From contig CAYPVU010000010.1 in assembly GCA_964414295.1 (NCBI GenBank), positions 6,937 to 70,936 on the forward strand: a stretch of DNA of 64,000 nt, given 5' to 3'. The notes under the pieces are model-generated. The model saw only the letters and a program-made list of their open reading frames with translations. It had not been told where the DNA came from and ran no database searches. The translations under genes were made by a program, and so were the position numbers. Positions 5,805-52,885 of this stretch are shown piece after piece (the stretch's first letter is position 1; the number at the start of each line of letters is the position of its first letter). This DNA is from an uncultured Candidatus Saccharibacteria bacterium. GTDB lineage: Bacteria > Patescibacteriota > Dojkabacteria > J137.

Positions 5805-5827
5805 CTAATTCTAAATAAAGTTGTTGA

Positions 5828-6859: not shown

Positions 6860-7449
6860 AAAGATTACTTTTTATAGGTGCTATATTTGCAATATTGATA
6901 TCAAGCACTACTCTTGGATTTCATTCCTACGCTCTTAATTCAAAATTAGAAACGTATAGAGAATTAAAAGAAAATATTAACTTAGATCTTGAGTCTTTAG
7001 GAAATTTAGAAAAAAACACTAGTAGACCTAAAAAGCTTAAGGATTTTAAAAATATTTATATTTTGTCTAAAAGAGATGTTGATCCCTACAAACATTTAGA
7101 GTTACTTATTATCCCTATGATAGATAATAAGGACTTAAGTGCTAGTGACATACTTAAGTCTTTCATAGCTAAGTATGTTACTACAGAATTCCCCTTTGAG
7201 GTTACAACAGAAAATAATGGTTCTATAGAAACTTCGTATACAAGCTTTTCGATTTTTTCTGATGGGGAGCATAGATCAGGAGAAAGATATGGCATTGTAA
7301 AAAAGAATAAAAAATACATTATTTTAATTCAAGGCTATATAAATCCCTTTGAGGGTAATAATGTATTTCAACATGAGTTTTTTAAATCGATTAGTAAAGG
7401 TATTAATTTTAATAGTAACAATAATGAAGAAGTTTTTTATAATCTTTAG
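6856..7449 (+). CDS. Hypothetical secreted protein
   Basis: ATGA start/stop overlap with the upstream gene; N-terminal signal peptide; no recognisable motif. Confidence 0.4.
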   Translation: MKRLLFIGAIFAILISSTTLGFHSYALNSKLETYRELKENINLDLESLGNLEKNTSRPKKLKDFKNIYILSKRDVDPYKHLELLIIPMIDNKDLSASDILKSFIAKYVTTEFPFEVTTENNGSIETSYTSFSIFSDGEHRSGERYGIVKKNKKYIILIQGYINPFEGNNVFQHEFFKSISKGINFNSNNNEEVFYNL

Positions 7450-24984: not shown

Positions 24985-25441
24985 GGGGATGCTTATTAGA
25001 CAGTAAACCTGCATATTAAAAATCAAGCCGGAATTTAGATTATTTGTTCCGTAAAAATAAGTAATCACCTTGAATAAAGGTAACTTGACTAAACGTCAAT
25101 CAAATTAAAAATACTTTCTCTAATGCAGTTGCAAACGTAAAGGCAGCTTTTGCTCCTTCTTACGCTTTAGCATTTGCTTAATTTAGAGTAAGTAGTTAAT
25201 CGAAAAAAAGAGTAGATTAACCACTTATTAGTTCTTTTTTCAGTGGGAATTATTAAGTGTCACACAGCTGAAATGCAGAATTTATTTTTAGTTTATGAAT
25301 AAATTTCAAGATTAAATAAACTGGAGTATGTAATTTTTGTAAGTTTTAATCGACATGCTTTTAATAAAAAACTTAATCTAAGCTTGTAAAAATTTTTAAT
25401 GTGAGATTTGTTGGACAGGGGATAACCCCTCATCTCCACCA
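24985..25441 (+). ncRNA. ssrA: tmRNA (SsrA), with tag ORF encoding about ANVKAAFAPSYALAFA
   Basis: 5' GGGGATG pairs with 3' CATCTCC-ACCA, with G3.U70 (the Ala identity pair). Resume region GCAAACGTAAAG...TACGCTTTAGCATTTGCTTAA parallels the canonical GCAAACGACGAAAACTACGCTTTAGCAGCTTAA. An intrinsic terminator follows the CCA. Length (about 457 nt) and the T-arm are atypical. Confidence 0.6.
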
Positions 25442-27136: not shown

Positions 27137-28384
27137 ATGAATCAGGCTTTGCCTTTACAAAATTCCAATCCAGTTAACACGCCAATGCAGCCTCAGCAGG
27201 TTCCTTTGCAGCCTCCACAGACACCAGTTTCGTCTTCTGTTCCCGCTAGTCAGCCAGCTGCTTACGATATTGATGTTTATGACGAAATTTCGGTTTTAAA
27301 AAAGAAGATAGAAGAGGCAAAATTACCTCAGCAATTAAAGGAAAAAGCTCAGGGTATGATCTTAAGACTTATTAAGATGTCTCAAAAAGGAAACTTTTCT
27401 GCTGAATTTGAACCAGTTTCTGAATATATAAACTGGATTACTAAGCTTCCATTTGGAGAATATACTACAGATAACATTGAGATTGATGATGTTAAATCTA
27501 CGCTAGATAAATATAATTATGGTTTAGAACCAGTTAAAAATAGAATTTTAGAATATCTTGCAGTTTTAAAATTACAAAATAAAACTAATTTACCTGAAGG
27601 TGCAGGTGAAATGGATGTTTCCGCAGAAATGATGAGGTTGCAGGGTAACTCTTCTCATGCTCCAATCTTATGTTTTGTAGGTATTCAAGGAGTTGGTAAG
27701 ACTTCTATGGCAAAAGCAATTGCTAATGCTTTAAATAGAAAATTTATGAGATTGGCATTAGGAGGTATGGGGAATGTAACAGAAATAAGAGGTATTCCAA
27801 GAGGTAATGTAGATGCTGAGCCAGGGCAAATTGTAAAATCTTTAATTAGAACAGGAGTGATGAATCCATTAATCTTATTGGATGAAATTGATAAAACAAG
27901 TGCGCAGAGCGGTGTAAGAACAGATGTTATGGCTGCTTTACTCGAAATCTTAGATCCTGAGCAAAATTCTACTTTTATGGATAAATATCTAGATTATCCA
28001 CTAGATTTATCTCAGTGTATTTTTATTTGTACGGCAAATAACTTGGGAGGTATTACTGCGGCTCTGTTAGACCGTTTAGAAATAATTCGTTTTGGTAGTT
28101 ATACAGATAACGATAAGGTTATGATTGCAAGAAATTATTTATTGCCAAAAGTTAGGGAAGCTACCGGATTAGGTGAAGACCAGCTTGCTTTTGCAGAAGA
28201 TGTTTGGCCAATGGTAATTAGGCCATTAGGTTTTGATGCTGGAGTAAGGCAGTTAGAAAGAACTTTAACTGAACTAGCTAGAAAAGTTGCATTACAAATT
28301 GTTAGAGGAACAGTTAAAAGTGTTCAAATAACAAAAGAAAATTTTAGAGAGTACATTCCAGAAGATATTGGAGTTTACTCATAA
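27137..28384 (+). CDS. Lon-like AAA+ ATPase domain protein without protease domain
   Basis: Pro/Gln-rich N-terminus and coiled coil. Lon-type AAA+ module (FVGIQGVGKTSMAKAIANALNRKFMRLALGG; LDRLEIIRFGSYTDNDKVMIARNYLLPK). The ORF ends right after the AAA+ helical subdomain, so there is no S16 protease region. Confidence 0.7.
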   Translation: MNQALPLQNSNPVNTPMQPQQVPLQPPQTPVSSSVPASQPAAYDIDVYDEISVLKKKIEEAKLPQQLKEKAQGMILRLIKMSQKGNFSAEFEPVSEYINWITKLPFGEYTTDNIEIDDVKSTLDKYNYGLEPVKNRILEYLAVLKLQNKTNLPEGAGEMDVSAEMMRLQGNSSHAPILCFVGIQGVGKTSMAKAIANALNRKFMRLALGGMGNVTEIRGIPRGNVDAEPGQIVKSLIRTGVMNPLILLDEIDKTSAQSGVRTDVMAALLEILDPEQNSTFMDKYLDYPLDLSQCIFICTANNLGGITAALLDRLEIIRFGSYTDNDKVMIARNYLLPKVREATGLGEDQLAFAEDVWPMVIRPLGFDAGVRQLERTLTELARKVALQIVRGTVKSVQITKENFREYIPEDIGVYS

Positions 28385-29126: not shown

Positions 29127-30350
29127 ATGTTTGGAAACAATAGAAATAAAAAAACAGTTAGTCGTAGCTCTAATTATCATCTGGCTGTAGATATTGGTAC
29201 TGAATTTGTTAAATCTGCAGTTTTTAAAGTAGAGGATGAAGAAGTTGTTATTTTAGGCTATAGTCGTATAAAGCAAAAAGAATCCTCAATGTATGCAGCT
29301 TTTATAATTAATCTACAGGCAGTAATAGAGGCCTGTGATAAAGGCATTGGTGAGGCTGTTGCGCAAGCAATGCAAAAAGAGGGAGAAGATTTTGTAATCC
29401 CTTCTGATGTAATTATAGGTATTGCAGGAGAATTGGTGCACGGAGTAACTATAATGGTAAATGTAGAAAGAGATAATCCTTCCTCCAAAATTACACAAAG
29501 AGAAGTTGATAAATTTGTAGAAAAAGTTAAAAAATACACTTTCTCCAGTACAGTTGAAGAAATTTCGAGAGAAATGGGACTTAAGGCAAGTCAGGTAATT
29601 GAGGTTAATACTGCAATAAACAGTGTCTACATAGATGGAATAAAAGTTTCTAATCCTTTAGGATACACAGGTAATGAACTTATATATAAGGTATTTTCTA
29701 CCTTTGCACCAAAAATTCATTTGGATTCAATTAATCAAGTAACAAATGCTTTAAATCTAAAGCTTAGTAAAATAGTTGTAGAGCCTTATGCGTTAGCAGT
29801 AGGGCTTCAAAATATGAGAGATCCAAATGCCAATGCAATTATTATTGATGTAGGTGGTGGAACAACCGATGTTGCTTTAGTAAGTAATGGAGATATTGTA
29901 GGTACAAAAATGTTTGCAATTGGAGGAAAAGTTTTTACTAAAAGAGTTCAAAGAGAGTTAGGGGTAAGTTACGAAGAAGCAGAAAAGATTAAAATTGATT
30001 ATTCAAATGGAGCTGTAGATAAAGATACGGATCAAAAGTTAACTAAGGCCTTTGAAATGGATATTTCTACTTGGTTAACAGGGGTAGAGATTGCACTGGA
30101 AGGTTTTCAGGATGTAGAAGAATTCCCTTCTCAGATATATATTTGTGGAGGAGGAGCCTTGCTGCCAGAGATTCAAGAAGGTTTATTAACATATCCATGG
30201 TTACAGACTTTGAATTTTAAAAAGTTCCCAAAGGTCAGCTTTATCTTTCCAAATGCATTAAATGGTGTTTTGGATAGAACAAAAAGCGCTACATTACCAA
30301 TGGATGTAACGCCTTTAGCATTAGCAAGAATGTATTTAGATAATTTGTAA
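29127..30350 (+). CDS. Actin-like ATPase of the FtsA/PilM family (paralogue distinct from ftsA at the window start)
   Basis: Phosphate-1 (HLAVDIGTEFVK), phosphate-2/adenosine (IIIDVGGGTTDVALV; YICGGGALLP) motifs and a FAIGGKVFTKRVQRELGVSYEEAEKIKIDY connect region; 407 aa. Confidence 0.65.
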   Translation: MFGNNRNKKTVSRSSNYHLAVDIGTEFVKSAVFKVEDEEVVILGYSRIKQKESSMYAAFIINLQAVIEACDKGIGEAVAQAMQKEGEDFVIPSDVIIGIAGELVHGVTIMVNVERDNPSSKITQREVDKFVEKVKKYTFSSTVEEISREMGLKASQVIEVNTAINSVYIDGIKVSNPLGYTGNELIYKVFSTFAPKIHLDSINQVTNALNLKLSKIVVEPYALAVGLQNMRDPNANAIIIDVGGGTTDVALVSNGDIVGTKMFAIGGKVFTKRVQRELGVSYEEAEKIKIDYSNGAVDKDTDQKLTKAFEMDISTWLTGVEIALEGFQDVEEFPSQIYICGGGALLPEIQEGLLTYPWLQTLNFKKFPKVSFIFPNALNGVLDRTKSATLPMDVTPLALARMYLDNL

Positions 30351-30366
30351 TTTTTATTTAGAAAAA

Positions 30367-32475
30367 GTGTCTATATCATCATCAGAAAAAATTTTTATAG
30401 ACCCAAGGGAAGAGATTACCTTTATAGTTGAGCGTTTATTAAAAGCCGAAAAAGATCGTATTATTTTGGTTGTCCCTCAGAATTCTTTGTTATTAAGTAG
30501 TTTAGTAAGTATAGATATTTTATTTAGAAAGTTAGTAAGAACTAAAAAGTTAGCAGTTATTGTTACTGAGGATGAATACGGTAAAGCTATTTCTTCTAAA
30601 GCTGGCTTTGTAGTTGTAGATAAGGTTAGTCAGATTACGAATGATCAATGGAACTTGGCAAATAATAAAAAGATGACTATTAAAGAGGTCCTTGATGAAA
30701 GAAAAGAAGCACTTTTAGCAAATATTAGTGGGGAGCATAAGTCAGTTGTAGACTTACCAGAACTCCCAGATGTAGAAGCAGAGGAGTTTGTGGTATCAGC
30801 AAATGAATTAAATGAGAGTGTAGAGGAGGATAATAAGACTTTTGAGGCAGTTCTTGAAGAACAAAATCTAGAAGATGGAGTGACTGAAGACATAATGGAA
30901 GATGAATATATTGAAGAACCTATTGTAGAAGAAAAAAGCATTGAAGAAAAAGAATTGGAATCATCTTTAAAGAAATATGCCAAACCTAGAAGAGAAGCTA
31001 AAGAAATTGATTTAGATGGTATAAAGCTTATCTCTGGAGGTGATGTAAAGTCTTTCATTGATTCTTTAGATAGTGTTAAAATGGCAAGTAATAATTCATT
31101 TACTCAAATGTCAGACGAAAAAAGCTTTGAACGAAAAATTAAAAAGGTTGGTTCATCTTCTTTTACAGGAAAAGATTTTACTAAACAAATAACTGAAAAA
31201 GGCGGAATTGGAGCTTTCTTTTCCAAATTCAGTCTAAAAAGAAGAAATCCTGATTTTAGAGACGAAAATGACTTCGTAAAAAAAAAGAATAGAAAAAGAA
31301 TTCTTTTAATTACATTTCTTATATTTCTATCGCTATTTGCAGGTAGCGGGTATATACTTGCATTCCAAGTATCTTCTGTAGATATTAATTTAAAATTAAG
31401 AGCACAGGATGTAAGTACTTCAGCTACTATACTAGTTAGTACAAAGGTAACAGAAATGAGCTTGGAATCTCCAATTACTATTCCTGCTAAAGAGTATTCA
31501 ATCTTACCAGAGAATTTAAGTATTTCTAAAACAGGTACCGCTGATGGAAGTGCTAAAAGAGGTGTTAAGTCTAAAGGTGTTGTTACTATTTATAACTTAC
31601 AAACCGAAAGTGTAGACTTGCCTGCAGGAGCCAAATTTAAAAATCTAACTAATAATTTAACTTATTTATTAGTTTCTGCTGTTACATTAGAGCCTGCTAC
31701 AGTAGCTGCAAATATTAAGACCCCAAGTTCTAAAGATAGTATTGCATTAGAAGCAGAAGCATTTGGTCCTCAATACAATATTGAAGTAGATGAAAAAACA
31801 AGATTTAGTATTGAAAACTACAGCACAGAAGAAGAGGTAAGTGCTACAGCATTTCAATCATTTACAGGGGGAACAGAAGAATCATTTACATCTGTTTCTC
31901 AAGAGAATTACGACAAGTTAAAAGATACTATAGTACCTGATTTAAAAAAGCAGGGGTTAGAAAGATTAAAAAGCTTAACAGAAAATGGTTACCAATTAAT
32001 TGAAGGTACAGTTGTTTACGATGAATCTAAGCAGCCAGAAGCTTTCCCTAAAGTTGGAGAAGAGGCTAAAGATAAAACATTTAATTTAACAGTACAAATA
32101 GGAATTAAAGGATTTGCAGTTAGGACTCAGGATTTAATAGAGGCTGTAAGTACAGTACTTAAAAATAATACCCAAAATAATGGTTCTGGAGATTTACAAA
32201 TAGATGATATTGCTGATCCGCAAATTGATAAAGTAGAAAAAAATGGAGATGATTATGTTTTAACAGTTTCTTCTAAAGGATCAGTTAAAACCCAAATAAC
32301 ACAAGAGCAGATGAAAAAAGATATTGCAGGTTTATCTATAAAGCAGGCCGAGGATTATTTTAGACTAATTGATTATATTGAAAGCTATAACTTAAGCTTT
32401 AATCCTGGTATTGTTCCAGAAGGTCTGCAGAGAGTGCCTTCGGATACTGCAAGAATTAACATTAGGACAAGATAA
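30367..32475 (+). CDS. Bitopic membrane protein (310-aa cytoplasmic N-region, one TM, about 370-aa extracytoplasmic domain), partner of the upstream actin-like ATPase
   Basis: Acidic low-complexity linker, TM RILLITFLIFLSLFAGSGYILAF, and a Ser/Thr-rich extracytoplasmic region; 17-nt gap to the upstream gene. Confidence 0.45.
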   Translation: MSISSSEKIFIDPREEITFIVERLLKAEKDRIILVVPQNSLLLSSLVSIDILFRKLVRTKKLAVIVTEDEYGKAISSKAGFVVVDKVSQITNDQWNLANNKKMTIKEVLDERKEALLANISGEHKSVVDLPELPDVEAEEFVVSANELNESVEEDNKTFEAVLEEQNLEDGVTEDIMEDEYIEEPIVEEKSIEEKELESSLKKYAKPRREAKEIDLDGIKLISGGDVKSFIDSLDSVKMASNNSFTQMSDEKSFERKIKKVGSSSFTGKDFTKQITEKGGIGAFFSKFSLKRRNPDFRDENDFVKKKNRKRILLITFLIFLSLFAGSGYILAFQVSSVDINLKLRAQDVSTSATILVSTKVTEMSLESPITIPAKEYSILPENLSISKTGTADGSAKRGVKSKGVVTIYNLQTESVDLPAGAKFKNLTNNLTYLLVSAVTLEPATVAANIKTPSSKDSIALEAEAFGPQYNIEVDEKTRFSIENYSTEEEVSATAFQSFTGGTEESFTSVSQENYDKLKDTIVPDLKKQGLERLKSLTENGYQLIEGTVVYDESKQPEAFPKVGEEAKDKTFNLTVQIGIKGFAVRTQDLIEAVSTVLKNNTQNNGSGDLQIDDIADPQIDKVEKNGDDYVLTVSSKGSVKTQITQEQMKKDIAGLSIKQAEDYFRLIDYIESYNLSFNPGIVPEGLQRVPSDTARINIRTR

Positions 32476-32546: not shown

Positions 32547-32561
32547 TGGCACTAGGTGCCA
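32547..32561 (+). promoter_or_regulatory. Palindrome TGGCAC-TAG-GTGCCA between a sigma70-like promoter and groES (candidate heat-shock operator; not a canonical CIRCE)
   Basis: Perfect 6+3+6 inverted repeat about 30 nt upstream of the groES ATG. TTGACA (32509-32514, one of two nearby TTGAC motifs) and TATTAT are upstream. No TTAGCACTC-N9-GAGTGCTAA seen. Confidence 0.3.
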
Positions 32562-32591
32562 AACTTAAAATTAATTTATTATCTTTTACTT

Positions 32592-32897
32592 ATGTCTAAG
32601 ATTAATGTAAAGCCAATAGGCGAGTATATCTTAGTAGAGCCTCAAGAAGAGGAAGAAAAGACAGCTTCCGGTTTATTAATTCAATCATCTTCAAAAGGAG
32701 AAAGACCTCAAAGAGGTAAAATTGCTGCTTTAGGTACAGGTAAAAGAGACGAGAGCGGTAAACTTATTGAATTCAGTGTAGAAGTAGGACAAGACGTCTT
32801 ATTTAAAAAATATGCTCCTGAAGATATTGAAATAGAAGGAAAATCCTATCTATTAATGAAAGAATCCGATATTTTAGCAGTATTAATTAATCAATAA
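32592..32897 (+). CDS. groES: Co-chaperonin GroES
   Basis: Start set at the internal Met (MSKINVKPIGEYILVEP), giving about 101 aa; mobile loop and roof hairpin are present. Confidence 0.9.
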   Translation: MSKINVKPIGEYILVEPQEEEEKTASGLLIQSSSKGERPQRGKIAALGTGKRDESGKLIEFSVEVGQDVLFKKYAPEDIEIEGKSYLLMKESDILAVLINQ

Positions 32898-32909: not shown

Positions 32910-34538
<1,629 letters not shown>

Positions 34539-34548
34539 TAAAGCGATT

Positions 34549-34577
34549 CTAAGCCCGCCTTCGGCGGGCTTTTTTTA
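34549..34577 (+). terminator. Rho-independent terminator after groEL
   Basis: aagcccgcc-ttcg-ggcgggctt followed by a T7 run. Confidence 0.7.
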
Positions 34578-34637: not shown

Positions 34638-34964
34638 ATGGGTAATTTATTGTTTGTCTTTTACTGGTGGTATTTTGTACTAGTTAAAGATTTTTGGCAA
34701 AACTATGTAATAGGAAGATTAGTTTATAATCTTAATCTTACAAATACTTTGCCTATGGCTAAGCATATAACTGATCCTTTGTTTCAAGATGATTCAGGAT
34801 TAGGAAAGTCCTTTAGCTTTGTAATAAGATTCATTTGGATAGGCATAGGCTCTTTTATGAGTGTAATTGTTACAATCCCATTTTTATTATTTGGATTATT
34901 TTTATTAATAGTTCCTTTTTTACCAATAATTCAATTTATTAGGTATATTTCGTTTTTAGTATGA
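34638..34964 (+). CDS. Small hydrophobic membrane protein, translationally coupled to the Clp ATPase gene
   Basis: Three to four TM helices; ATGA overlap with the downstream gene. Confidence 0.35.
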   Translation: MGNLLFVFYWWYFVLVKDFWQNYVIGRLVYNLNLTNTLPMAKHITDPLFQDDSGLGKSFSFVIRFIWIGIGSFMSVIVTIPFLLFGLFLLIVPFLPIIQFIRYISFLV

Positions 34965-37540
34965 ATGGAAAAGTCATATTAGCTAAATATAAAAGTGCAC
35001 AGATTACAGTTGATTTTTCTTCACTATCTTTCTTTAAAGGTGATAAATTCTCAATTTATAAACTAGAATTAAATGCTGCTAAATTACTGAATATATTTAC
35101 AGCAATAATTGTATTCGTGCCGTTATTAATACTTATTATGAATGCTGAGTTTTCTATCGGCTCACTTATTAATCCTTCAAACTTATTAGAATATATTCCT
35201 TATTTAGGCATTTACACATTTATATTTGCTAGATTTTTAGGAAGAGATAGAGATAAGTTTGATCATATAATTAAAAATTATAATTTGTTAAAAGTAAGTA
35301 AGGAATTAGAACAAGGTAAATCACTTTCGATAGAAATTACTGAATACATGGATTTCGAAACTCTTTGTTTATTGGATTCTGTACTGGAGGATAAAGATCA
35401 TCCGTTTATTGTAAACATTTGCAGGTTGCTAATAAAGAATAAAGAAATAGAGTACTTTTTAACTAATCGTATAGGCGTAAATTCAGACAGATTTATAGAG
35501 TTATTAAGTAAGAATGCTAATAATCCAAACTTTACATTAAGTAATTCTTATAGAACTTTCTTTTTATATTTGTTTGATGAAGCAATAAAACTGGAATCAA
35601 ACAGAATAAATAAATATGTTCTATTTTTTGTATTAAATAAATACTTTCTAAGAAGTCTTTACTTTGAATTAGGAGTAGGGGAGCTTGAACTAGAAGGCTT
35701 AAGAGTATGGTTTAAAAACGAAACGAAACAAAAGGAATATTATATTAAATGGGAAAAACTTTCAAAATTAAAACCTAAGGGTGATGTAAATAGAGCCTAT
35801 ACATCTAGGGTTACCCCTGTATTAGATGAATATGCTGAAGATTTTACTAAGCAGGCTGCTTTGGGTTTTTTTATGCTATCTGTTGGTAAAGATCAAGAAA
35901 TGAATAAGGTTGTTGAAATTATGGAAAGAGGTAAATCAACTCCATGTTTAATTTTAGGGGAACCTGGTGTGGGTAAAACAAGATTTATAAGACATTTAGC
36001 AACAAGAATGGTGGTTGAGGATGTTCCATCGAGACTATACGATCATAGACTATTAATTGTGGATTTAAATAAGATTTTAACTCAAGTAGGAACAGTAGAT
36101 ATCTTTAAGCAGACTTTGCAAAGAATGTTCGAAGAAGTCCGTTACTCAGGAAATGTAGTTTTGGTTTTAGAAGAATTCAGTCAAATCCTAAATATTAGAG
36201 AAGAAGCAAAACTGGAAGTTGTTAACTTAATTGTAAATGCAGTAGACAGTTTAAATTTAAGAATAATTGCTACTTCTAATAATGCCAGTTATTCTAAATT
36301 TATTAAGCCTCTTAAAAATCTTGCTGCATTATTTGAAGTAGTTAATTTAAAAGAGCCTTCTTCTAATGTTGCATTACAGATTTTAATTGATGAAGTCCCG
36401 AGGGTAGAAAAAAAATATAAGGTTAGTGTAAGAGTTAATGCTTTAAAAAGAATTGTAGAGTTTGCACCAAAGTTTGACCAAGACAGAGTAATGCCAGATA
36501 AAGGCATTGATTTGCTGGAAGAAGCTTGTTTAGCAGCAAAAAATAGAGGATTATCTTTTTTAGATGTATCTACAGTTGATGAAGTCCTATCAGAAAAAGT
36601 AGGGGTAAAAGTAGGTAATTTATCGGAGGCAGAAAGTCAAACTTTAATGTCTTTGGCTACTAAAATGCACGAAAGAGTAATCGGTCAAGATGAAGCTATT
36701 ACAGCCATAACTTCTGCAATAAAAAGATCAAGATCCGGTTTATCTGTAAGCAAAAGACCTATTGCATCCTTTCTTTTTTATGGACCTACTGGAGTGGGTA
36801 AAACAGAGGTGGCAAGAACTTTGGCAGATGTATATTACGGAAGTGAAAATCTTTTAATTAGACTTGATATGTCTGAATACCAAGAAGATCAGAATTTAAA
36901 CAGAATAATTGGATATACAGACGAGAAAGGTAACTTTATTGGTGGACATTTAACTGAATCTGTTAGGTCAAGACCATTCTCGCTTGTATTACTTGATGAG
37001 ATTGAAAAAGCTAATAAAAAAGTATTAGATTTATTCTTACAAGTTCTTGATGAAGGTACACTCACAGACGGTTTAGGCAGAAAGGTAGATTTTACAAATA
37101 CTGTAATTATTATGACATCTAATGTTGGTTCGGACTTAATTGCTAAAGAAATAGTTGAGGGTAAAAAGTACCATGACGTAGAAAAAGATGTTTCTCAAAA
37201 GTTAAGGGAGTATTACAGAATTGAATTTTTAAATAGATTTGATAAATTAATAATGTTTAGACCGCTAAATAGGATTGAAATTGAGCAAATAGTACTTTTA
37301 ATGTTAAAAAAAATAAATGATAATTTAATGCAGAAGGGTATAAGTTTTAGTTGGAACGAAAATACATTGATTGAATTGGCCAATATGGGTTATAGTCAGA
37401 TGTTCGGTGCCAGAGAGTTAAAAAGAGTAGTTCAAGAGAATATTGAGGATAAATTGGCGGATTTAATTATTCAAGGTAAGTTAAGAAGCGGTACAGAAGC
37501 AGTTTTTAATGGATTAACTGTTCAACAAGTGGTAAATTAG
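34961..37540 (+). CDS. Clp/Hsp100-family AAA+ ATPase (two nucleotide-binding domains) with a novel TM-containing N-terminal region
   Basis: D1 Walker A LILGEPGVGKTRF. D2 Walker A FLFYGPTGVGKTEVA, sensor/linker LMSLATKMHERVIGQDEAI and Walker B LVLLDEIEKA. Hydrophobic helix at residues about 42-62. No long ClpB M-domain and no obvious ClpP-docking IGF/LGF loop. Confidence 0.8.
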   Translation: MNGKVILAKYKSAQITVDFSSLSFFKGDKFSIYKLELNAAKLLNIFTAIIVFVPLLILIMNAEFSIGSLINPSNLLEYIPYLGIYTFIFARFLGRDRDKFDHIIKNYNLLKVSKELEQGKSLSIEITEYMDFETLCLLDSVLEDKDHPFIVNICRLLIKNKEIEYFLTNRIGVNSDRFIELLSKNANNPNFTLSNSYRTFFLYLFDEAIKLESNRINKYVLFFVLNKYFLRSLYFELGVGELELEGLRVWFKNETKQKEYYIKWEKLSKLKPKGDVNRAYTSRVTPVLDEYAEDFTKQAALGFFMLSVGKDQEMNKVVEIMERGKSTPCLILGEPGVGKTRFIRHLATRMVVEDVPSRLYDHRLLIVDLNKILTQVGTVDIFKQTLQRMFEEVRYSGNVVLVLEEFSQILNIREEAKLEVVNLIVNAVDSLNLRIIATSNNASYSKFIKPLKNLAALFEVVNLKEPSSNVALQILIDEVPRVEKKYKVSVRVNALKRIVEFAPKFDQDRVMPDKGIDLLEEACLAAKNRGLSFLDVSTVDEVLSEKVGVKVGNLSEAESQTLMSLATKMHERVIGQDEAITAITSAIKRSRSGLSVSKRPIASFLFYGPTGVGKTEVARTLADVYYGSENLLIRLDMSEYQEDQNLNRIIGYTDEKGNFIGGHLTESVRSRPFSLVLLDEIEKANKKVLDLFLQVLDEGTLTDGLGRKVDFTNTVIIMTSNVGSDLIAKEIVEGKKYHDVEKDVSQKLREYYRIEFLNRFDKLIMFRPLNRIEIEQIVLLMLKKINDNLMQKGISFSWNENTLIELANMGYSQMFGARELKRVVQENIEDKLADLIIQGKLRSGTEAVFNGLTVQQVVN

Positions 37541-37559: not shown

Positions 37560-37943
37560 ATGAATAAAAAAAGAGCTTTAGTTTTAACTATTGTTGCATT
37601 ACAAAGTCTTTTTATTACTATGCCCTTATTGGCTCAGGGACTTACTAATGTAAATCAGAACTTTCAAATTCCTAACCCTACCAGATACGGAGACCTTGAA
37701 GATATTATAAATGCAGCTACTTCTTTAATTCGACCTGTATTTATAATAACTTTTGCTGCCATGGTTTTATATGGAGGATGGGTTAGATTAACATCTCAAG
37801 GTAATCCAGATAAAATTAAATCCAGCTCTCAAATTATAGTTGCTGCAATTGTTGGATTTGCAATCGCTGTATTTGCTCCTACAATAGTAGACTTTGCTGG
37901 TAGATTATTAGGGGTAAGCGGAGGTTTAATTGGCGAACGATAA
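37560..37943 (+). CDS. Pilin-like secreted two-helix protein, paralogue 1 (VirB2/TrbC-like architecture)
   Basis: Signal peptide ...PLLA|QG, hydrophobic helix, loop RLTSQGNPDKIK, second hydrophobic helix; 127 aa. Confidence 0.5.
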   Translation: MNKKRALVLTIVALQSLFITMPLLAQGLTNVNQNFQIPNPTRYGDLEDIINAATSLIRPVFIITFAAMVLYGGWVRLTSQGNPDKIKSSSQIIVAAIVGFAIAVFAPTIVDFAGRLLGVSGGLIGER

Positions 37944-37944
37944 T

Positions 37945-38547
37945 ATGAAGAAAGCTTTATTACTAACAATCATTTCTTTTTTAACAATAGGGATTGTTGT
38001 TAATGCACAGACGGGGAGTGGTCAATGCGATGCTCCTTATTATATTCCTTCTGCTTGTCCAGCTCCATATAGGCCGGGAATAAGCGGGGGTTATACTGCA
38101 GACTTAAATTGTCAATTAGAAAAATTTACAGATCCTCAAAGTAACTGTTGTCCAAATAAATGTGTAACTGCAGATGGTTCATCAAATGCTGGAGCGCAAA
38201 ATCCAGACTTATTTTGGGATATAGATGTTTTTGGTACCGTTATGAGAATTAATCCTGACAATACACCTGTTCTTATTAATATACTATTTACCACGGTTTT
38301 AGGCTTAGTATCTTTATATGCTATTGTTAGGGGGATCTATGTTACTGGTGTAAAAAGAACAATGGCTACTACTCCTGACGAAATTGCAGAAATAAATAAA
38401 GAACTTACAAACCTTATTATAGGTGCAGCTCTTTGTTGGGGGTTCATAATCTTAATACAAGTGGTTGCAAACTTCTTAGGTGTTGGTTCTTTAAGCAGTT
38501 TAGATTTTAGTAGCGGAGATTCCGGTACTGTTATTATTGTAAATTAA
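37945..38547 (+). CDS. Pilin-like secreted protein, paralogue 2 (Cys-rich variable region)
   Basis: Start set at MKKALLL, immediately after the upstream stop. Signal peptide ...VNA|QT; eight Cys in the variable segment; two hydrophobic helices. Confidence 0.45.
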   Translation: MKKALLLTIISFLTIGIVVNAQTGSGQCDAPYYIPSACPAPYRPGISGGYTADLNCQLEKFTDPQSNCCPNKCVTADGSSNAGAQNPDLFWDIDVFGTVMRINPDNTPVLINILFTTVLGLVSLYAIVRGIYVTGVKRTMATTPDEIAEINKELTNLIIGAALCWGFIILIQVVANFLGVGSLSSLDFSSGDSGTVIIVN

Positions 38548-39113
38548 TGAAAAAATTTATTATTGTATCTTTATTAATTTTGTTTCTTTCTCCAATTACA
38601 ATCTTTGCTCAAGATAGGTCAGGAGGGAGTGCAAATTCAACTACCTCTACACAAGATATTGATGATGAAATTGGGTTAAGAGAAATTAGAATTCCTATTT
38701 TTAGTAGTTTTATAGATTTTGATACTGAGAATGCAAGTATTTTTAGTTGGATATCGTTTATCGGATCTTTAGCTACAATTGGCTTAGTAGTTTTTTGGAT
38801 ATTTTTATTAGTTAAAGCAGGTGTAAAGGGAATGCAAAGCCAAGGAAATGCTGAGAACTTAACTGGGGCATTTAAGCAGGTGCAATCCGTATTGATTGGG
38901 GCCGCTGTAACGCTTTTCTTTCCATTTGTTTTGAGTTTAATAGGACTCTTTTTTGGTATAGGTACTATTTTTAGCTGGCCAAAGATGTTTCAATTATGCG
39001 ATAAGTCATCAAATCCAAATGGATTTGACTTTTATTTTCAATATTTAATCAGTATTGGATCAGAAGGCGATGAAGCTGCCGCTGAAAGCGCTTGTAATCC
39101 ACTAGGAACATAA
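38547..39113 (+). CDS. Pilin-like secreted protein, paralogue 3
   Basis: TAATG overlap. Signal peptide ...IFA|QD; helix, loop MQSQGNAENL, helix; C-terminal Cys pair. Confidence 0.45.
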   Translation: MKKFIIVSLLILFLSPITIFAQDRSGGSANSTTSTQDIDDEIGLREIRIPIFSSFIDFDTENASIFSWISFIGSLATIGLVVFWIFLLVKAGVKGMQSQGNAENLTGAFKQVQSVLIGAAVTLFFPFVLSLIGLFFGIGTIFSWPKMFQLCDKSSNPNGFDFYFQYLISIGSEGDEAAAESACNPLGT

Positions 39114-39116
39114 TTT

Positions 39117-39551
39117 ATGAGAAAAATTATATTAATCATTTTTATTTCTTTACTAAGTTTAATTCCGGTGAGTATTAAAGCTCAATCTGCATCTGAATTC
39201 CTTCCTTGTAATCAGTACGATCCAAGTGTATTTGATGCTTGCGGTACAAATGTAAATGATCAAGTAACTAATTTAATAAAGGTTGCAATTTCTGCGGTTT
39301 TTGCTTTAATAGTATTGTACGGTATTTTCTTGATAATTAAAGCAGCACTTACTATAATAAGAAGCAATGGAGACCCAGGACAGGTGCAAAGTGGAGCAGA
39401 TATTTTAAGAGGTGTATACATTGGTATTGGAATTATTTTTGTAGGTTTGATAGGATTAATAATCGTTATTGCATTTTTTGGTGCAGAGGGTATTTTGAGT
39501 ACTAATGTTAATACACCAGGAAATACAGTAATACCATTAATTACAAATTAA
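39117..39551 (+). CDS. Pilin-like secreted protein, paralogue 4
   Basis: Signal peptide ...IKA|QS; Cys pair; helix-loop-helix core IKAALTIIRSNGDPGQVQSG...FVGLIGLIIVIAFFGAEG. Confidence 0.5.
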   Translation: MRKIILIIFISLLSLIPVSIKAQSASEFLPCNQYDPSVFDACGTNVNDQVTNLIKVAISAVFALIVLYGIFLIIKAALTIIRSNGDPGQVQSGADILRGVYIGIGIIFVGLIGLIIVIAFFGAEGILSTNVNTPGNTVIPLITN

Positions 39552-39573
39552 TTTAATTTATTAAATAAATCTT

Positions 39574-40068
39574 ATGTTTAAAAATAAGACTTTAGTAGCA
39601 GTAATGATGGGAGCTTTTCTATTGGCAGCGCCATTAGTATCTCCTTTATTAACTGCAAAAGCAGATAACTTAATCTGTACAGTTTTCCCATTTATCAATA
39701 GTGTTACAGCTTTTGGTATTAATGCATTATGTTCAGAAGGTGGAATTAGTGCAGATACAACAAGTAATACAATTAGAAGTACATTCAACTTAATTGTATC
39801 TTTAATCTTTGTTGCAATTATTATCTTCTCAATTTACGTAATAATTAAAGCAGCTATTAAATACATTAGAAGTGAAGGTGATCCAGCTAAAATTGAAGAA
39901 GCTCAAAAAGCAATTAAATCTGTATTCATTGGTATTGCAGCTTTATTTGTAGGATTAATCGGAATTATTATTGTTATTGCATTCTTTGGTGCAGGTGGAG
40001 CATTAAACTCGGATCAAAATGCAGTAAATACAAGTCCATTATTAAACTCAATCTTAAACGGAAATTAA
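39574..40068 (+). CDS. Pilin-like secreted protein, paralogue 5
   Basis: Core nearly identical to paralogue 4: IKAAIKYIRSEGDPAKIEEAQK...FVGLIGIIIVIAFFGAGG. Confidence 0.5.
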   Translation: MFKNKTLVAVMMGAFLLAAPLVSPLLTAKADNLICTVFPFINSVTAFGINALCSEGGISADTTSNTIRSTFNLIVSLIFVAIIIFSIYVIIKAAIKYIRSEGDPAKIEEAQKAIKSVFIGIAALFVGLIGIIIVIAFFGAGGALNSDQNAVNTSPLLNSILNGN

Positions 40069-40084: not shown

Positions 40085-40113
40085 AAAGCCCGCCTTTTGG
40101 CGGGCTTTTTTTT
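40085..40113 (+). terminator. Rho-independent hairpin within the pilin-like array (possible attenuator after paralogue 5)
   Basis: aaagcccgcc-tttt-ggcgggcttt followed by a T8 run. Confidence 0.6.
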
Positions 40114-40177: not shown

Positions 40178-40990
40178 ATGAATAAAAAGAAAAAATTAGT
40201 TTATTTACTTCTTTTGCTTAATCTCTTTTTTGGTCAATTTGCGGTAGTACATGCACAATTACAGACCTTTGATTTCTCCGCCAATAATCCAGAAAGCTAC
40301 CAATGTTTTAATAAAGAAACAGGAGAGATATTAGATATACCCGTTGAGCCAACTCCGGACGAATTTGGTAATTACTATTGTAATAATGGAGGAACTAGAG
40401 TTATAGCTCAATTAAAACCTCCTACACTCCAGCAATTAGAAGTTTGGTTTGTTAGAATTTTATACGCAATTTGGGGTCTTGTGGCTTCTTTATCCTTTCT
40501 ATTCTTAGTTAAGTTAGGATACGAATACACAATATCTAGAGGGGACCCTACAAAGATAACAGAAGTAAGAAAAAGAATTGTAAGTTATTTAATAGGTTTT
40601 GCTCTTGTATTTTTAGCTGTCCCAATATTAACTACAGTATTTAGATTGTTAGGCATTAATACTAATGCGCAGTGTTATAACGTTAATATGCCTGGCTTTA
40701 GATTCTTTTATGCTACATTATGTACCGACCCTAAGGGAGTGATCGCATCTAAATTTGCCTCTAATCCGTGTCAGGCATTTATTGATGGAGAAGCGCCAGA
40801 AGGTATTACTTGTAGCGGAACTCCTTATGCGGGTGGTGCACCAGTTACATGTGGTGTAGTTGGTTTAGCTTCAATTTCATTAACATGCCAAGTTCAAGAA
40901 GGAGATAGCCCAGGTGCATCAACGTGGTGTAGAACATCAACTTTATTTGGCTTTTGCTCATCATCGTGTAACCCATCGGGTTGTCCATAA
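40178..40990 (+). CDS. Pilin-like secreted protein, paralogue 6, with extended Cys-rich C-terminal domain
   Basis: Signal peptide ...VHA|QL; helix-loop ISRGDPTKITEVRK-helix; about 120-aa C-terminal tail with 12 Cys. Confidence 0.45.
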   Translation: MNKKKKLVYLLLLLNLFFGQFAVVHAQLQTFDFSANNPESYQCFNKETGEILDIPVEPTPDEFGNYYCNNGGTRVIAQLKPPTLQQLEVWFVRILYAIWGLVASLSFLFLVKLGYEYTISRGDPTKITEVRKRIVSYLIGFALVFLAVPILTTVFRLLGINTNAQCYNVNMPGFRFFYATLCTDPKGVIASKFASNPCQAFIDGEAPEGITCSGTPYAGGAPVTCGVVGLASISLTCQVQEGDSPGASTWCRTSTLFGFCSSSCNPSGCP

Positions 40991-43554: not shown

Positions 43555-46053
43555 ATGCATTTAAGAGCAGATTTTATTGTAGGAACTCAAACCTCTAATT
43601 CATGGTCAGGAGTATATGGTTTTAAACCAGAAGACTCTATTGAGCCGCTAGAACTTTTTGCCATTATTAAGTTGGAATCCCTTACCAGCGAAGACAGATT
43701 AGAGGCTCTGGCTAAAATGTTTTTAGATGAACTCCAAAACTATCTATTTAACGAAGGTAAAGAGGGAAACTATATAATTAGACTAGAAAATGCTGTTTGG
43801 AAAATGAAATCCAAAATGGAGTTGCTTTTATCTTCAGATGAAAGATATTCCCAAAATGGATTAGATATAGAAATTGCTCTTACTTTATTCGATAAGAATT
43901 TTCTTTACTTAGGTGTAATAGGCGAAAGCAAGATCTTTATTAAAAGAGAGGATAAATTTGTAGAGCTTTCTCAAGGTTTATCTGATGCAAACATGATGGG
44001 CTTCTTAAAAACAGGAAGTCTAGAACTGGAAGAAGGGGATAGACTGGTTTTAGCAACCAATACAGCTGCAGAACAAGGGCTGGGAAGTATAGAGGCTTCT
44101 GTTAATAATTTAAATATTCAAGCATTGTCATCATTAACTAGTGGAAAAGGTACTGCAGTACTACTTTTAGCAGATGAAAAAGATAATTGGACAGAAAAAG
44201 AAATTATAGATGAAGAGTTTATTCCAGAAACTCCTATTAATTTAGAAACTGAAGATAATCAACATCAAGAATCTGCCAAATTTATACCTATTCAAGAAGA
44301 AGATTTTGAAGATAATACCGAATATATTGCTACAGAGTCAAACGAAGAAGAGTTAAACCTACAGCCATTAGAAGATAAAATTATTCCCGTAGAGAGGGAG
44401 GAAGTTGTTTTAAATACTAATATAACAGAATTGAATGAAAATGAATTACCAAAAGGAAAGGTCTTATTAAATTCAGTAGGGAGTAAATTATCTTCAAGTA
44501 TGAGGGTAGGGGCAAGTAAACTTACTGATTTACGCACGAGAATGAAAAGAGTTCCCCTAGAAAACGCAACTGAATTTAATAATGACATAGATAATTCAGT
44601 AGAGATTAAAGAATCAAAAGTAGGTTCAGTACTCACTAAAACTGCACCGATTCTAAATTCTATACAATCCTTTGTGCAAAACAAGTTAATGCCTTTCTTT
44701 AAAAAAAGTAATAAAACATATATTAAATATTTAAGAGATTTTGTTTTACTTGTAGTTGGATTAATTAAAAAATTCGTGGCATGGTTTAAAAAAGAATTTA
44801 TTGGTGGAGGAGTTGATGATAGAAGGAATATTTTTGAAAAAGCAAAAAAAAGAAAAAGAAATAGAATTATTTTAATTGTACTTGTAGTTATTTTGGCAAT
44901 ATTAATTGTATCAGCGATTAATAATAGAAATGCACAATTAAGGGAACAGGAAAGAATCGATACTGCTAGATCAAATGTAGATCAATATAAATCTGAACTA
45001 GACAATTTAGTAAGACAAGCAAATAGTAATCTTAATGATACTCAGAAAAATACTGTAATAGATCAGTTAGATAAACTAAACACTAGTTTAGAAACACAAA
45101 AAAGACAGGATTTATTTATAGATGAAATTGCAAATTATCAAACAACCATTACCAAAACAAAAGATAAAGTTTTAGGTGTTGTTGGCTTTACGGACCCACA
45201 AATGGTTGCAGATATTGGGAAAATCTATTCAGATGCAAATTTAATAGATATGGTTTATACGGATGGTAATTTATATGTGGGAGATAAGGCAAGAAATGCA
45301 ATATATCAAGTAGGAACAAATATAAATTCTCAGGTATCTCAATTTGCAACTGGTTTAAATGCCCCATATACAATGACAGTAAATGCGGCAGGAGACATTA
45401 TTTTCTTTGATTCAGATAGTACAAGTGCTGTAGGTAGAATATTTGTGGGGGAAAATGGCAGAATTGAAAGATATCCTGGATTAGCTCCTGCAGTTATTGG
45501 CACTGTTACTAAATCAGCAGTTTTTAGTGGTAATGATGCCTTATATGAATTACATCAAAATCATCAGCAGATATATAAAAGAGAAAAAGCAGGTGAAGAT
45601 TATACTAGTGGAGGAGCAGTATATAACACACAAAATCCACCAAACTGGAAAACAGACCCAGAGTTGGGAAGTGCAATAGATATAGATATCCCTTACGAGA
45701 TTTATGTTTTGATAAGAGGTAAAGGATTAAGAAGATATTTAGCTGGGGAAGCAAATACAATCTCTAAAGAAACCTTTGTAAATACTTCTCAAAAAGATAT
45801 TGACTCATTAGCATCTGCCACTGCATTTGACATAGATGGTAAACTATTGGCAGTTGCTGATCCAACAAACAGAAGAGTACTTTTATTCAGAATTGAAGAT
45901 AATGATGCTAAAACTTTGGCATACGAGAAATCTTATGTATATAGAGGTAATGACTCTACAACCTTTAAAAATATTAAAGAAATAGTTGTGAATGAATCAA
46001 GTAAGTATATCTTTGTATTGGATGGCACAGGAATAATAAGATTAGATATTTAA
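43555..46053 (+). CDS. Large bitopic membrane protein with cytoplasmic N-domain and C-terminal beta-propeller/NHL-like repeat region
   Basis: TM NRIILIVLVVILAILIVSAI near residue 440. C-terminal repeats (DGNLYVGDKARNAIYQV; GDIIFFDSDSTSAVGRIFV; LAVADPTNRRVLLF) suggest a beta-propeller. Confidence 0.45.
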   Translation: MHLRADFIVGTQTSNSWSGVYGFKPEDSIEPLELFAIIKLESLTSEDRLEALAKMFLDELQNYLFNEGKEGNYIIRLENAVWKMKSKMELLLSSDERYSQNGLDIEIALTLFDKNFLYLGVIGESKIFIKREDKFVELSQGLSDANMMGFLKTGSLELEEGDRLVLATNTAAEQGLGSIEASVNNLNIQALSSLTSGKGTAVLLLADEKDNWTEKEIIDEEFIPETPINLETEDNQHQESAKFIPIQEEDFEDNTEYIATESNEEELNLQPLEDKIIPVEREEVVLNTNITELNENELPKGKVLLNSVGSKLSSSMRVGASKLTDLRTRMKRVPLENATEFNNDIDNSVEIKESKVGSVLTKTAPILNSIQSFVQNKLMPFFKKSNKTYIKYLRDFVLLVVGLIKKFVAWFKKEFIGGGVDDRRNIFEKAKKRKRNRIILIVLVVILAILIVSAINNRNAQLREQERIDTARSNVDQYKSELDNLVRQANSNLNDTQKNTVIDQLDKLNTSLETQKRQDLFIDEIANYQTTITKTKDKVLGVVGFTDPQMVADIGKIYSDANLIDMVYTDGNLYVGDKARNAIYQVGTNINSQVSQFATGLNAPYTMTVNAAGDIIFFDSDSTSAVGRIFVGENGRIERYPGLAPAVIGTVTKSAVFSGNDALYELHQNHQQIYKREKAGEDYTSGGAVYNTQNPPNWKTDPELGSAIDIDIPYEIYVLIRGKGLRRYLAGEANTISKETFVNTSQKDIDSLASATAFDIDGKLLAVADPTNRRVLLFRIEDNDAKTLAYEKSYVYRGNDSTTFKNIKEIVVNESSKYIFVLDGTGIIRLDI

Positions 46054-46055
46054 AC

Positions 46056-46511
46056 ATGAAAGTCCTAGCCAGTAATAAAAAGGCCTATTTTGATTTTGAT
46101 ATACTTGAAAATATTGTAGCAGGTATTAGTCTAGTTGGATGGGAAGTAAAATCAATTAAAGCAGGCAAAATAAGTTTAAATGGTGCTTACATTAAAGTAT
46201 TAAATGGAGAGATGTACTTAGAGAATGCAGTTGTGCCTTCGCTTAAATACACTCCTAACGTTTCTCAGCATCAAGAAAGCAGAAAAAGGAAGTTGTTGCT
46301 TACTAAAAGACAAATCTCTGTATTAACTGCAAATGCTAAACAACCCGGAAATACAATTGTCCCCTTAGAAGTAGTAGAAAATGATTCCGGATTAATAAAA
46401 GTAAATGTAGCATTAGTAAAGGGTAGAAAAAAGTTTGATAAAAGAGAGAAGTTAAAAGAAAAAGATATTCAGAAACGAATTAATTTTGAAAGAAAAAAGT
46501 ATAATATTTAA
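46056..46511 (+). CDS. smpB: SsrA-binding protein SmpB
   Basis: VAGISLVGWEVKSIKAGKISLNGAYI...RKRKLLLTKRQI, the SmpB signature; 151 aa. Confidence 0.85.
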   Translation: MKVLASNKKAYFDFDILENIVAGISLVGWEVKSIKAGKISLNGAYIKVLNGEMYLENAVVPSLKYTPNVSQHQESRKRKLLLTKRQISVLTANAKQPGNTIVPLEVVENDSGLIKVNVALVKGRKKFDKREKLKEKDIQKRINFERKKYNI

Positions 46512-50235: not shown

Positions 50236-50310
50236 AAATTTTAAATCTTTTTGCTATACTTTGCTTGCTTTTACAGCAAATCTTGAACATTAATAGTAAG
50301 TATTTTTAAT

Positions 50311-50384
50311 AGGCCTGTAGCTCAGCTGGTTAGAGCACGGTTCTTATAAAGCCGGGGTCCGCAGTTCAAGTCTGCGCAGGCCTA
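50311..50384 (+). tRNA. tRNA-Ile with UAU anticodon
   Basis: Cloverleaf AGGCCTG/CAGGCCT acceptor, discriminator A, anticodon stem CGGTT/AGCCG, loop CTTATAA (34-36 = TAT). 5' half nearly identical to the tRNA-Ile(GAU) in the rRNA spacer. Confidence 0.65.
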
Positions 50385-50481
50385 TTTAGAATATTTAGAC
50401 TTCTATACAAATTTTTCTCTAAAATCGATTAGTTTGCATCAAACCTATTACTACATTAAACTATAGAGTAAAGTTTTTTGT

Positions 50482-52544: not shown

Positions 52545-52619
52545 CGCGGGGTAGAGCAGTGGCAGCTCGTCAGGCTCATAACCTGAAGGTCGTGCGTTCG
52601 AATCGTACCCCCGCAACCA
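52545..52619 (+). tRNA. tRNA-Met (CAU), initiator type
   Basis: Anticodon loop CTCATAA; C1 x A72 unpaired end (CGCGGGG vs CCCCGCA), which is characteristic of bacterial initiator tRNA; CCA encoded. Confidence 0.7.
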
Positions 52620-52701: not shown

Positions 52702-52775
52702 GTCAGGGTAGCTCAGAAGGTTAGAGCACAGGATTCATAAACCTGAGGTCGAGGGTTCGATTCCCTCCCCTGATA
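52702..52775 (+). tRNA. tRNA-Met (CAU), elongator type (alternatively an Ile2-type CAU tRNA)
   Basis: Cloverleaf GTCAGGG/CCCTGAT, anticodon loop TTCATAA, T-loop TTCGATT. Confidence 0.65.
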
Positions 52776-52885
52776 CTATTTATATCTATTCGGCATTTAA
52801 GACCATTATTTCCAAAGAACGTTTTTATAATAGACGTCATAAGATATAATAAATGTAGTTCCAATTTAATTATTCACTTAAATCT

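Follow-up and report, generated by a model that had tools for sequence, protein, structure and literature searches.

A predicted membrane-anchored Clp/Hsp100 ATPase encoded with a small membrane protein in Dojkabacteria

In the literature that we searched, Hsp100/Clp proteins are soluble cytoplasmic or organellar unfoldases, and the extraction of proteins from bacterial membranes is attributed to FtsH; these searches returned no description of a membrane-anchored Clp/Hsp100 in bacteria of the candidate phyla radiation (CPR). FtsH works on membrane proteins, and its two-helix N-terminal anchor sets the entry face of an AAA+ hexamer at the cytoplasmic membrane. The eukaryotic Msp1/ATAD1, Pex1-Pex6 with Pex15/Pex26, and Cdc48 with its recruiters are likewise membrane-tethered AAA+ hexamers that extract proteins from the bilayer (see PMC12793716 and PMC9265785). 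Here we describe a locus in a stretch of 64,000 nucleotides (contig CAYPVU010000010.1, positions 6,937 to 70,936; the whole of it is called the window below) from an uncultured member of the Dojkabacteria, in which a gene for a 108-residue membrane protein overlaps a gene for an 859-residue Clp/Hsp100 ATPase with a predicted membrane anchor of its own. The two open reading frames (ORFs) and their overlap, proposed in a first-pass annotation made from the DNA alone, were confirmed, and the module is laid out as follows.

34638..34964, + strand: small membrane protein of 108 residues, overlapping the Clp start by ATGA
34961..37540, + strand: membrane-anchored Clp/Hsp100 class I AAA+ ATPase of 859 residues, its start overlapping the stop of the 108-residue ORF (ATGA)
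35084..35140, + strand: predicted transmembrane helix 1 (residues 42-60), from hydropathy and an AlphaFold2 (AF2) helix at residues 29-60
35183..35239, + strand: predicted transmembrane helix 2 (residues 75-93), an AF2 helix over the same residues, preceding a conserved L-x-R-D-R
35321..35680, + strand: divergent Clp_N-fold domain (residues ~121-240), from Pfam matches of distant relatives and the AF2 fold
35681..35815, + strand: linker helix (residues 241-270) and the motif LKPxGxVNRAYTS, from conservation
35816..36565, + strand: degenerate D1 AAA+ module, with Walker A (residues 333-340) kept, EE at Walker B, and neither arginine fingers nor a pore-loop tyrosine
36566..37540, + strand: D2 AAA+ module with D2-small, with conserved catalytic motifs, a non-canonical pore loop and no ClpP loop

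The 859-residue protein has the two AAA+ modules of a class I, two-ring ATPase (D1 of the AAA type with AAA_lid_9, D2 of the AAA_2 type) followed by a C-terminal D2-small domain; the Pfam matches were to AAA_2 (4.1e-49), ClpB_D2-small (1.4e-19), AAA_lid_9 (1e-8) and two AAA stretches, and the same scan found no Peptidase_M41. A search of PDB sequences matched ClpB, ClpC and ClpA (E-values of 1e-89 to 1e-109), with ClpC and ClpB leading the PDB searches, and the top Foldseek matches of the Clp model were ClpC structures (3e-51). The NCBIfam models for ClpB, ClpA, ClpV, ClpK and ClpG all matched far below their cut-offs, with scores between one fifth and one third of the required value, the best being ClpB (TIGR03346; 459.9 bits against an equivalog cut-off of 1232), with ClpA at 416 bits against 993 and ClpV/TssH at 392.9 bits against 885; families of the type VI secretion system were absent among the scanned neighbors of the Clp gene. 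The protein therefore lies inside the Clp/Hsp100 superfamily but cannot be assigned to ClpB, ClpA/ClpC, or ClpV by the features that define them.

One departure from ClpB, already suspected in the first reading of the sequence, is the loss of the M-domain. The alignment to ClpA was colinear in a single stretch (residues 288-846 against ClpA 169-730), whereas those to ClpB and ClpC split in two around their M-domains, leaving ClpB residues ~392-466 unmatched. The two Walker A motifs lie 275 residues apart, as compared with ~400 in ClpB. Taken together, the colinearity with ClpA, the split of the other two alignments and the short spacing indicate that the M-domain is absent.

More than 110 full-length relatives (38-81% identity, 98-100% coverage) were found with the full-length sequence, so that the whole architecture, N-terminus included, is lineage-wide and not an artifact of assembly or annotation. 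Their source names are Candidatus Dojkabacteria, WS6 or Patescibacteria, and their public annotation is generic, either "ATP-dependent Clp protease ATP-binding subunit ClpC" or "AAA family ATPase". A word-indexed search with the N-terminal 300 residues returned one relative and a single-sequence scan for related genomes returned three close genomes; the wider family came from the full-length search and from exhaustive profile searches, in which a profile of the N-terminal 300 residues found 400 cluster representatives (E-value of 1e-3 or less) among 1.84 billion proteins. N-terminal hydrophobic peaks were present in nearly all of the full-length cluster representatives listed. Counts of residue conservation given below refer to an alignment of 112 relatives, and loci and proteins compared with the window carry the labels L001 to L014 and P followed by a number. 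In L009 the gene call for a distant member (P0229, 1231 residues, 4240-7935) also takes in a Glycos_transf_4 (MraY/WecA-like) domain, which reflects either a true fusion or an artifact of gene calling.

The very hydrophobic helix at residues 42-60, which the first-pass annotation had taken as the only transmembrane segment, has the highest Kyte-Doolittle mean in the protein (2.81, 19-residue window); the count was raised to two by a second helix at residues 75-93. Among the relatives the family mean was 2.35 for the first helix and 1.69 for the second, with the most frequent residue reaching a frequency of merely 0.29 and 0.43, respectively, i.e., hydrophobicity is kept and the sequence is variable. 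Lysine plus arginine averaged 3.7 before the first helix, 1.0 in the 14-residue loop and 3.9 after the second helix, from which, by the positive-inside rule, the hairpin is predicted to be N-in/C-in. In the full-length AF2 monomer model (predicted local distance difference test, pLDDT, 87.4) a beta-hairpin (residues 4-18) precedes the two helices (residues 29-60 and 75-93) and a helical domain follows them. Two conserved hydrophobic helices of ~19 residues with a positive-inside bias fit an integral-membrane hairpin, and the membrane tethering proposed at the outset is thus supported. In FtsH a single AAA ring, from another clade, is fused to an M41 protease, and the two helices are separated by a periplasmic domain; the 859-residue protein has, by comparison, two rings, no protease, and only the 14-residue external loop.

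Pfam Clp_N had no direct match in the protein, and a family hidden Markov model (HMM) of the N-terminal 300 residues found no Clp_N match among PDB sequences, the best being an insignificant match to a transmembrane segment of a mannosyltransferase. The earlier statement that no Clp_N is recognizable proved true of the direct Pfam scan only, as Clp_N was matched in 18 of 61 homologous segments (best E-value 2e-9), and the AF2 model of the N-domain alone (pLDDT 94.1) retrieved almost exclusively Hsp100 N-domains from the PDB by Foldseek (Plasmodium falciparum HSP101, Hsp104, ClpB 1khy, ClpC, ClpC1, and ClpA). These matches had probabilities up to 1.00 and TM-scores of 0.5-0.66, with E-values of only 0.05-1, the best being to P. 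falciparum HSP101 (4iod/4irf; for 4iod, probability 1.00 and TM-scores of 0.55/0.66). The homology is remote, and from these two lines of evidence we regard residues ~121-240 as a divergent Clp_N domain. Both hydrophobic helices are N-terminal to it, and the hairpin is therefore an addition before Clp_N, neither a replacement for it nor one of its buried helices, the latter having been named in advance as a finding that would undo the tethering proposal. The most conserved element of the N-terminal 300 residues is the linker motif LKPxGxVNRAYTS, in which K271, P272, N277, and T281 are invariant and R278 and S282 nearly so. The motif (35771-35815, residues 271-285) has a low pLDDT in the model (60-77) and may serve in docking or form part of the pore entrance.

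Both AAA+ modules had been called intact, and this held for the Walker A motifs (GEPGVGKT at residues 333-340 in D1, GPTGVGKT at residues 608-615 in D2), for the sensor-2 GAR and for the catalytic residues of D2; D1 turned out to be degenerate and the D2 pore loop non-canonical. In D1 we found LEE at Walker B where ClpB has IDE (EE, not DE), ATSN in the sensor-1 region where ClpB has GATT, LAALFE in place of the arginine-finger motif LERRFQ (ALERRFQ) of ClpB, and GTVDIFK in place of KYRGEFE at the pore loop. Across the relatives the D1 Walker A is conserved, the arginine fingers are missing in 112 of 112, the catalytic position of Walker B is occupied by D (54 sequences), N (29) or E (only 27), and one of S, N, T, and D stands at the pore-loop position; among distant relatives the Walker A Thr/Ser is often lost too. 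With none of the Walker B DE, the arginine fingers and the pore-loop tyrosine of a competent ring, D1 is probably a nucleotide-binding assembly ring with poor ATP hydrolysis. D2 kept Walker A, Walker B (D679 and E680, both invariant), sensor-1 N721, the arginine finger R759 and sensor-2 R818, and has EKGNF at the pore loop in place of GYVG, the family pattern being x-G-x-F-x-G-G with F659 in 97 of the 112 sequences. A degenerate D1 beside an intact D2 is seen in distant relatives too. D2 would then be the sole motor, its grip on the substrate being uncertain.

The D2 segment from sensor-1 to the arginine finger aligned without a gap to Thermus thermophilus ClpB and with a 7-residue gap exactly opposite "fagfggs" of Staphylococcus aureus ClpC. 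At this aligned site the hydrophobic-Gly-Phe/Leu tripeptide of a ClpP-docking loop was found in 0 of the 112 relatives, the family consensus being S-K-E-I-A-D-L-I-E-K-G-K-K-Y, which bears out the lack of an IGF/LGF loop noted from the first inspection. Like ClpB/Hsp104, the protein thus combines the order Clp_N, D1, D2, D2-small with a gapless D2 segment and no ClpP loop, but it differs from them in its missing M-domain, degenerate D1, non-canonical D2 pore loop, membrane hairpin, and dedicated partner. It resembles ClpA/ClpC in its colinearity with ClpA over residues 288-846 and in its top Foldseek matches to ClpC, and is unlike them in having no IGL/VGF/AGF loop, no ClpC half M-domain, a membrane anchor, and a degenerate D1.

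Three elements can be recognized in the 108-residue protein: an N-terminal helix with the aromatic motif WWY, a loop of conserved sequence (LPMAK..PLFQDD..GK..F.IRF), and a hydrophobic stretch of ~50 residues, read as a two-helix hairpin. It had no relatives in Pfam or the PDB, and the family is so far unannotated. Two candidate origins were tried and rejected: no VirB3 family appeared among the Pfam matches (E-value of 10 or less) of 15 members, and hhalign gave a probability of 0.2% for a paralogue of the Clp transmembrane module. In 13 of 14 loci, whose other neighbors differ, an HMM of the partner family detected a member immediately before the Clp gene, in overlap with it or no more than 150 bp away: in the Dojkabacteria-type loci (L001-L007 and L010, as in the window), in L011, in L008, L009, and L012 (TGT context), and in L014 (yet another context). 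For L011 the available ~0.5 kb of upstream sequence contained no groESL, and its relative P0155 has RecA and unrelated genes upstream. The exception, L013, carries the partner domain within the Clp protein itself (P0260, 866 residues; residues 2-101, HMM E-value 5.6e-13), and the domain is likewise fused to the Clp N-terminus in P0198 (860 residues; 5.2e-14); in both proteins it replaces the usual beta-hairpin and transmembrane hairpin. The case for a single membrane module made of both products rests most firmly on these fusions, which also place the C-terminus of the partner, and hence its conserved loop, in the cytoplasm. The coupling to a small membrane protein that had been suggested for the window, being found in several genomic contexts, thus has stronger support than the window alone could give.

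The genes on either side of the module, and the signals that separate them, are listed below.

32556-32897: groES, upstream of the 108-residue ORF
32916-34538: groEL, directly upstream of the 108-residue ORF
34551..34571, + strand: intrinsic terminator after groEL, AAGCCCGCC-TTC-GGCGGGCTT and a T run, with a 9-bp stem (7 GC)
37560..40068, + strand: five VirB2-like genes, whose products carry a signal peptide and two transmembrane helices each
40085..40108, + strand: strong terminator, near-identical to the copy after groEL; predicted end of the 108-residue ORF/Clp/pilin unit
40178-40990, + strand: sixth VirB2-like gene, beyond the second terminator (signal peptide, two transmembrane helices)

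The module had been placed immediately downstream of groESL, with an implied heat-shock link. The adjacency is real and extends throughout the Dojkabacteria loci, being lost in other clades, but the terminator after groEL makes groESL a neighbor outside the 108-residue ORF/Clp unit. With that terminator between them and no CIRCE (controlling inverted repeat of chaperone expression) element or HrcA operator found, heat-shock co-regulation of the two is unsupported. No terminator was predicted on the + strand between 34551-34571 and 40085-40108, so the predicted operon runs from the 108-residue ORF through Clp to the fifth pilin gene, a link that the first-pass annotation had not noticed. A strong terminator follows groEL in L001 and L003 too. 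In L003 the stop of Clp and the first pilin-like gene overlap, and the next strong terminator is reached only beyond the end of the pilin-like array. Both hairpins in the window are G+C-rich within a genome of 31% G+C. A hairpin pattern search (4-nt loop, two mismatches or fewer) matched only the copy at 40086, with none expected by chance; the copy at 34551 has a 3-nt loop.

The pilin-like proteins have 127, 205, 188, 144, 164, and 270 residues, and T4SS_pilin (PF18895) was matched by four of the six, with the 127- and 270-residue proteins above the gathering threshold. The arrangement of Clp followed by a pilin array also occurs in L001, L003, L010, L011, and the P0155 contig; the last two form a second clade, with a ~580-residue protein between Clp and the array and upstream genes unlike those of Dojkabacteria. 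In CPR bacteria VirB2 arrays of 2-11 genes, to which the array in the window corresponds, are reported to be widespread, in hundreds of assemblies, and one array was reported to be essential in a cultivated Saccharibacterium (bioRxiv 10.1101/2025.01.22.634366). Downstream of the array in the window, an 819-residue protein (47125-49584, + strand) had weak matches of the VirD4/TraG/TraD/TrbC type in its C-terminal half and, judged from these, is probably an ATPase of the VirB4/type IV coupling protein superfamily of type IV secretion systems (T4SS). An 832-residue ORF (43555-46053, + strand) had no significant family match, and smpB (46056-46511) lies between the two genes.

The reading that we favor, with moderate confidence, is that the Clp protein is a ClpP-independent, D2-driven dislocase or remodeler of membrane-embedded proteins. 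Both genes would contribute to one membrane-integrated Hsp100 machine, with the ATPase ordered as cytoplasmic beta-hairpin, N-in/C-in membrane hairpin, divergent Clp_N, linker, D1, and D2, and with the 108-residue protein as a dedicated membrane subunit beside its N-terminal end that replaces the anchor of the ATPase by fusion in some lineages. In the hexamer, as we infer it, the D1 ring would bind ATP for assembly and the D2 ring would be the only motor. Hsp100 substrates enter at the N-domain/D1 face and leave from D2, and the anchored N-terminus with a tether of ~25 residues from the second helix to Clp_N would therefore hold the entry face against the cytoplasmic side of the membrane, as in FtsH and Msp1, from where ATP hydrolysis would drive pulling on cytoplasm-exposed segments of membrane-embedded proteins. 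The missing ClpP loop implies that the product is released, not degraded, so that the protein is not a protease partner, and the missing M-domain implies that there is no ClpB-type control by DnaK. The preference for an extractase or disaggregase over a protease partner, expressed from the outset, fits this predicted geometry, with the non-canonical pore loops as a caveat. Pex1/Pex6 similarly combine one inactive ring with a small membrane-protein anchor. The likeness to Msp1, Pex1-Pex6, and Cdc48 is in logic only, as these are eukaryotic, belong to other AAA+ clades and show no homology of their anchors.

Several observations weigh against this reading. Neither ring has the canonical pore-loop tyrosine; in D2 all that is left is F659, three residues further on, and in many distant relatives the D2 pore-loop site is devoid of aromatic residues. 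Processive threading is therefore not assured, and the machine might work by partial pulling in place of full threading, or do something else entirely. The transmembrane assignment is a prediction, for which we drew on hydropathy, on the bias in charge and on an AF2 model of the monomer. As to the clients, a third clade (L008, L009, and L012-L014) has no VirB2 array after Clp, so pilins are not a universal client, and VirB2 arrays appear to be more widespread than a Clp family of only 400 cluster representatives, a comparison between different types of counts. We propose only tentatively, on the basis of the predicted operon, that in this lineage the likeliest clients are the VirB2-like pilins encoded on the presumed common transcript. 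Doubtful at present is the further step that in Dojkabacteria and the related clade the module would be an undescribed dislocase that powers VirB2-like pilus dynamics by extracting, exchanging, or recycling pilin paralogues.

In a narrower alternative, the protein would serve the CPR type IV secretion-like system as an accessory ATPase dedicated to pilins, extracting VirB2-like pilins from their membrane pool for assembly, for paralogue exchange, or for retraction and turnover, in parallel to the VirB4-mediated dislocation of VirB2 in Agrobacterium. The terminator-bounded predicted operon of the 108-residue ORF, Clp and five pilins speaks for it, as do the similar unit in L003 with its gene overlap, the recurrence of the arrangement in L001, L010, L011, and the P0155 contig (although other genes lie upstream in the last two), the presence in L012 of an N_methyl pilin gene, of the kind found in type IV pili, 10 bp beyond Clp, and the VirB4/VirD4-superfamily ATPase 7 kb downstream. 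Other neighbors in the third clade are unrelated, however, with no nearby pilin gene in L008, L009, L013, and L014; pilus extrusion would call for movement opposite to threading toward the cytoplasm, unless partial dislocation suffices; and neither a Clp nor an AAA+ component or partner is mentioned in the preprint on CPR T4SS, which reports VirB2 arrays from hundreds of assemblies (bioRxiv 10.1101/2025.01.22.634366). On balance we consider this alternative possible and rate its chances as low. The analogy with VirB3-VirB4 is partial: there too a gene for a small inner-membrane protein lies upstream of that for a hexameric ATPase, serves in anchoring, is sometimes fused to it and sits beside VirB2 genes (bioRxiv 10.1101/2025.01.22.634366), but we found no sequence similarity, the ATPase here is of the Clp type, and the 108-residue protein matches no Pfam family.

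Unlikely, to our judgment, is that the protein is a tethered housekeeping disaggregase, i.e., the only ClpB/ClpC orthologue of the lineage, acting alone like ClpG/ClpL on soluble aggregates, with the anchor and partner serving localization or regulation and the pilin neighborhood being inherited synteny. Its ClpB-like D2 and best NCBIfam match to ClpB would fit, as would a Clp_N domain (which binds substrates or adaptors in other Hsp100s), the groESL adjacency throughout Dojkabacteria, and the absence of a second Clp from the family scans of the window. Against this stand the terminator before the Clp unit and the lack of a CIRCE element, and other clades lose the groESL adjacency yet retain or fuse the membrane partner. 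The ~25-residue tether would moreover hold the entry face at the membrane, and no characterized disaggregase is known to lack, in this combination, the M-domain, the catalytic residues of D1 and the tyrosines of the pore loops.

Very improbable is an export motor, in which 12 Clp helices together with those of the partner would form a channel and the ATPase would push unfolded proteins outward, as in the Plasmodium translocon of exported proteins (PTEX; HSP101/EXP2). The pairing leads one to expect at least 24 transmembrane helices per hexamer, secretion-related genes lie downstream, and the HSP101 N-domain (4iod) is the nearest solved fold, PTEX also being an Hsp100 coupled to a membrane assembly; but the 4iod match is only marginally above those to the ClpB, ClpC, and Hsp104 N-domains, HSP101 does not span the membrane and keeps its M-domain and canonical pore loops, and, going by Hsp100 threading polarity, the entry side would face the membrane here, opposite to PTEX, where the D2 exit face sits on the pore. 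We give hardly any credence to a ClpP-dependent ClpC/ClpA orthologue, as the source annotation "ClpC" and the ClpA-like spacing without an M-domain are outweighed by the missing docking loop in all relatives, the 7-residue deletion relative to ClpC, the low ClpA score, and the absence of clpP from the family scans of proteins encoded in the 64-kb window.

The remainder of the window (~31% G+C) is that of a small bacterial chromosome, with ftsA, ftsZ, a sigma-70 factor gene, the gene for RNase Y, parAB, ileS, yidC, smpB, ftsH, polA, tmRNA, and an rRNA operon. One of these is listed for its bearing on the comparison above.

52886-55291: bona fide FtsH, encoded separately from Clp

Some other genes deserve mention in their own right. 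A 415-residue protein (27137-28384, + strand) matched the Lon AAA+ module and lid alone (TIGR00763 positions 252-572 of 795, E-value 3e-108), with neither the protease domain nor the Lon N-domain, and appears from this match to be a Lon-like ATPase that has no protease part; L001, L003, and L010 encode proteins equal to it in size and domain content at the syntenic position. A PilM/FtsA-like actin-fold protein (407 residues) followed by a 702-residue protein without a family match (29127-32475, + strand) forms a pair upstream of groESL in every Dojkabacteria locus examined (L001, L003, and L010). A tRNA-Ile gene (anticodon TAT) is clustered with two CAT-anticodon tRNA genes (50310-50385, 52545-52619, and 52702-52776), which may bear on the reading of AUA codons in the lineage. 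The tmRNA gene (~457 nt, 24985-25441, + strand) scored 47.2 bits in Rfam against a gathering threshold of 47 and was not called by ARAGORN. A 284-residue ORF (4950-5804, + strand) joins a HEPN domain and a minimal nucleotidyltransferase domain in one chain; these are usually two separate toxin-antitoxin-like genes.

The combination found here is unusual: a double-ring Clp built into the membrane, as predicted, which is without an M-domain, a ClpP loop or catalysis in D1, has odd pore loops in both rings and comes with a membrane subunit of its own. If the dislocase reading is correct, it would be a bacterial counterpart of the eukaryotic extractors Msp1, Pex1/6, and Cdc48, and for AAA+ mechanism it would offer a natural test of how much work can be done by a single active ring without the canonical pore-loop tyrosine. 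In CPR biology it would provide a concrete candidate for the handling of variable VirB2-like pilin arrays, and, if it also powers the VirB2-like pilus, would make a Clp-family motor part of an apparatus that episymbionts may use for host contact.

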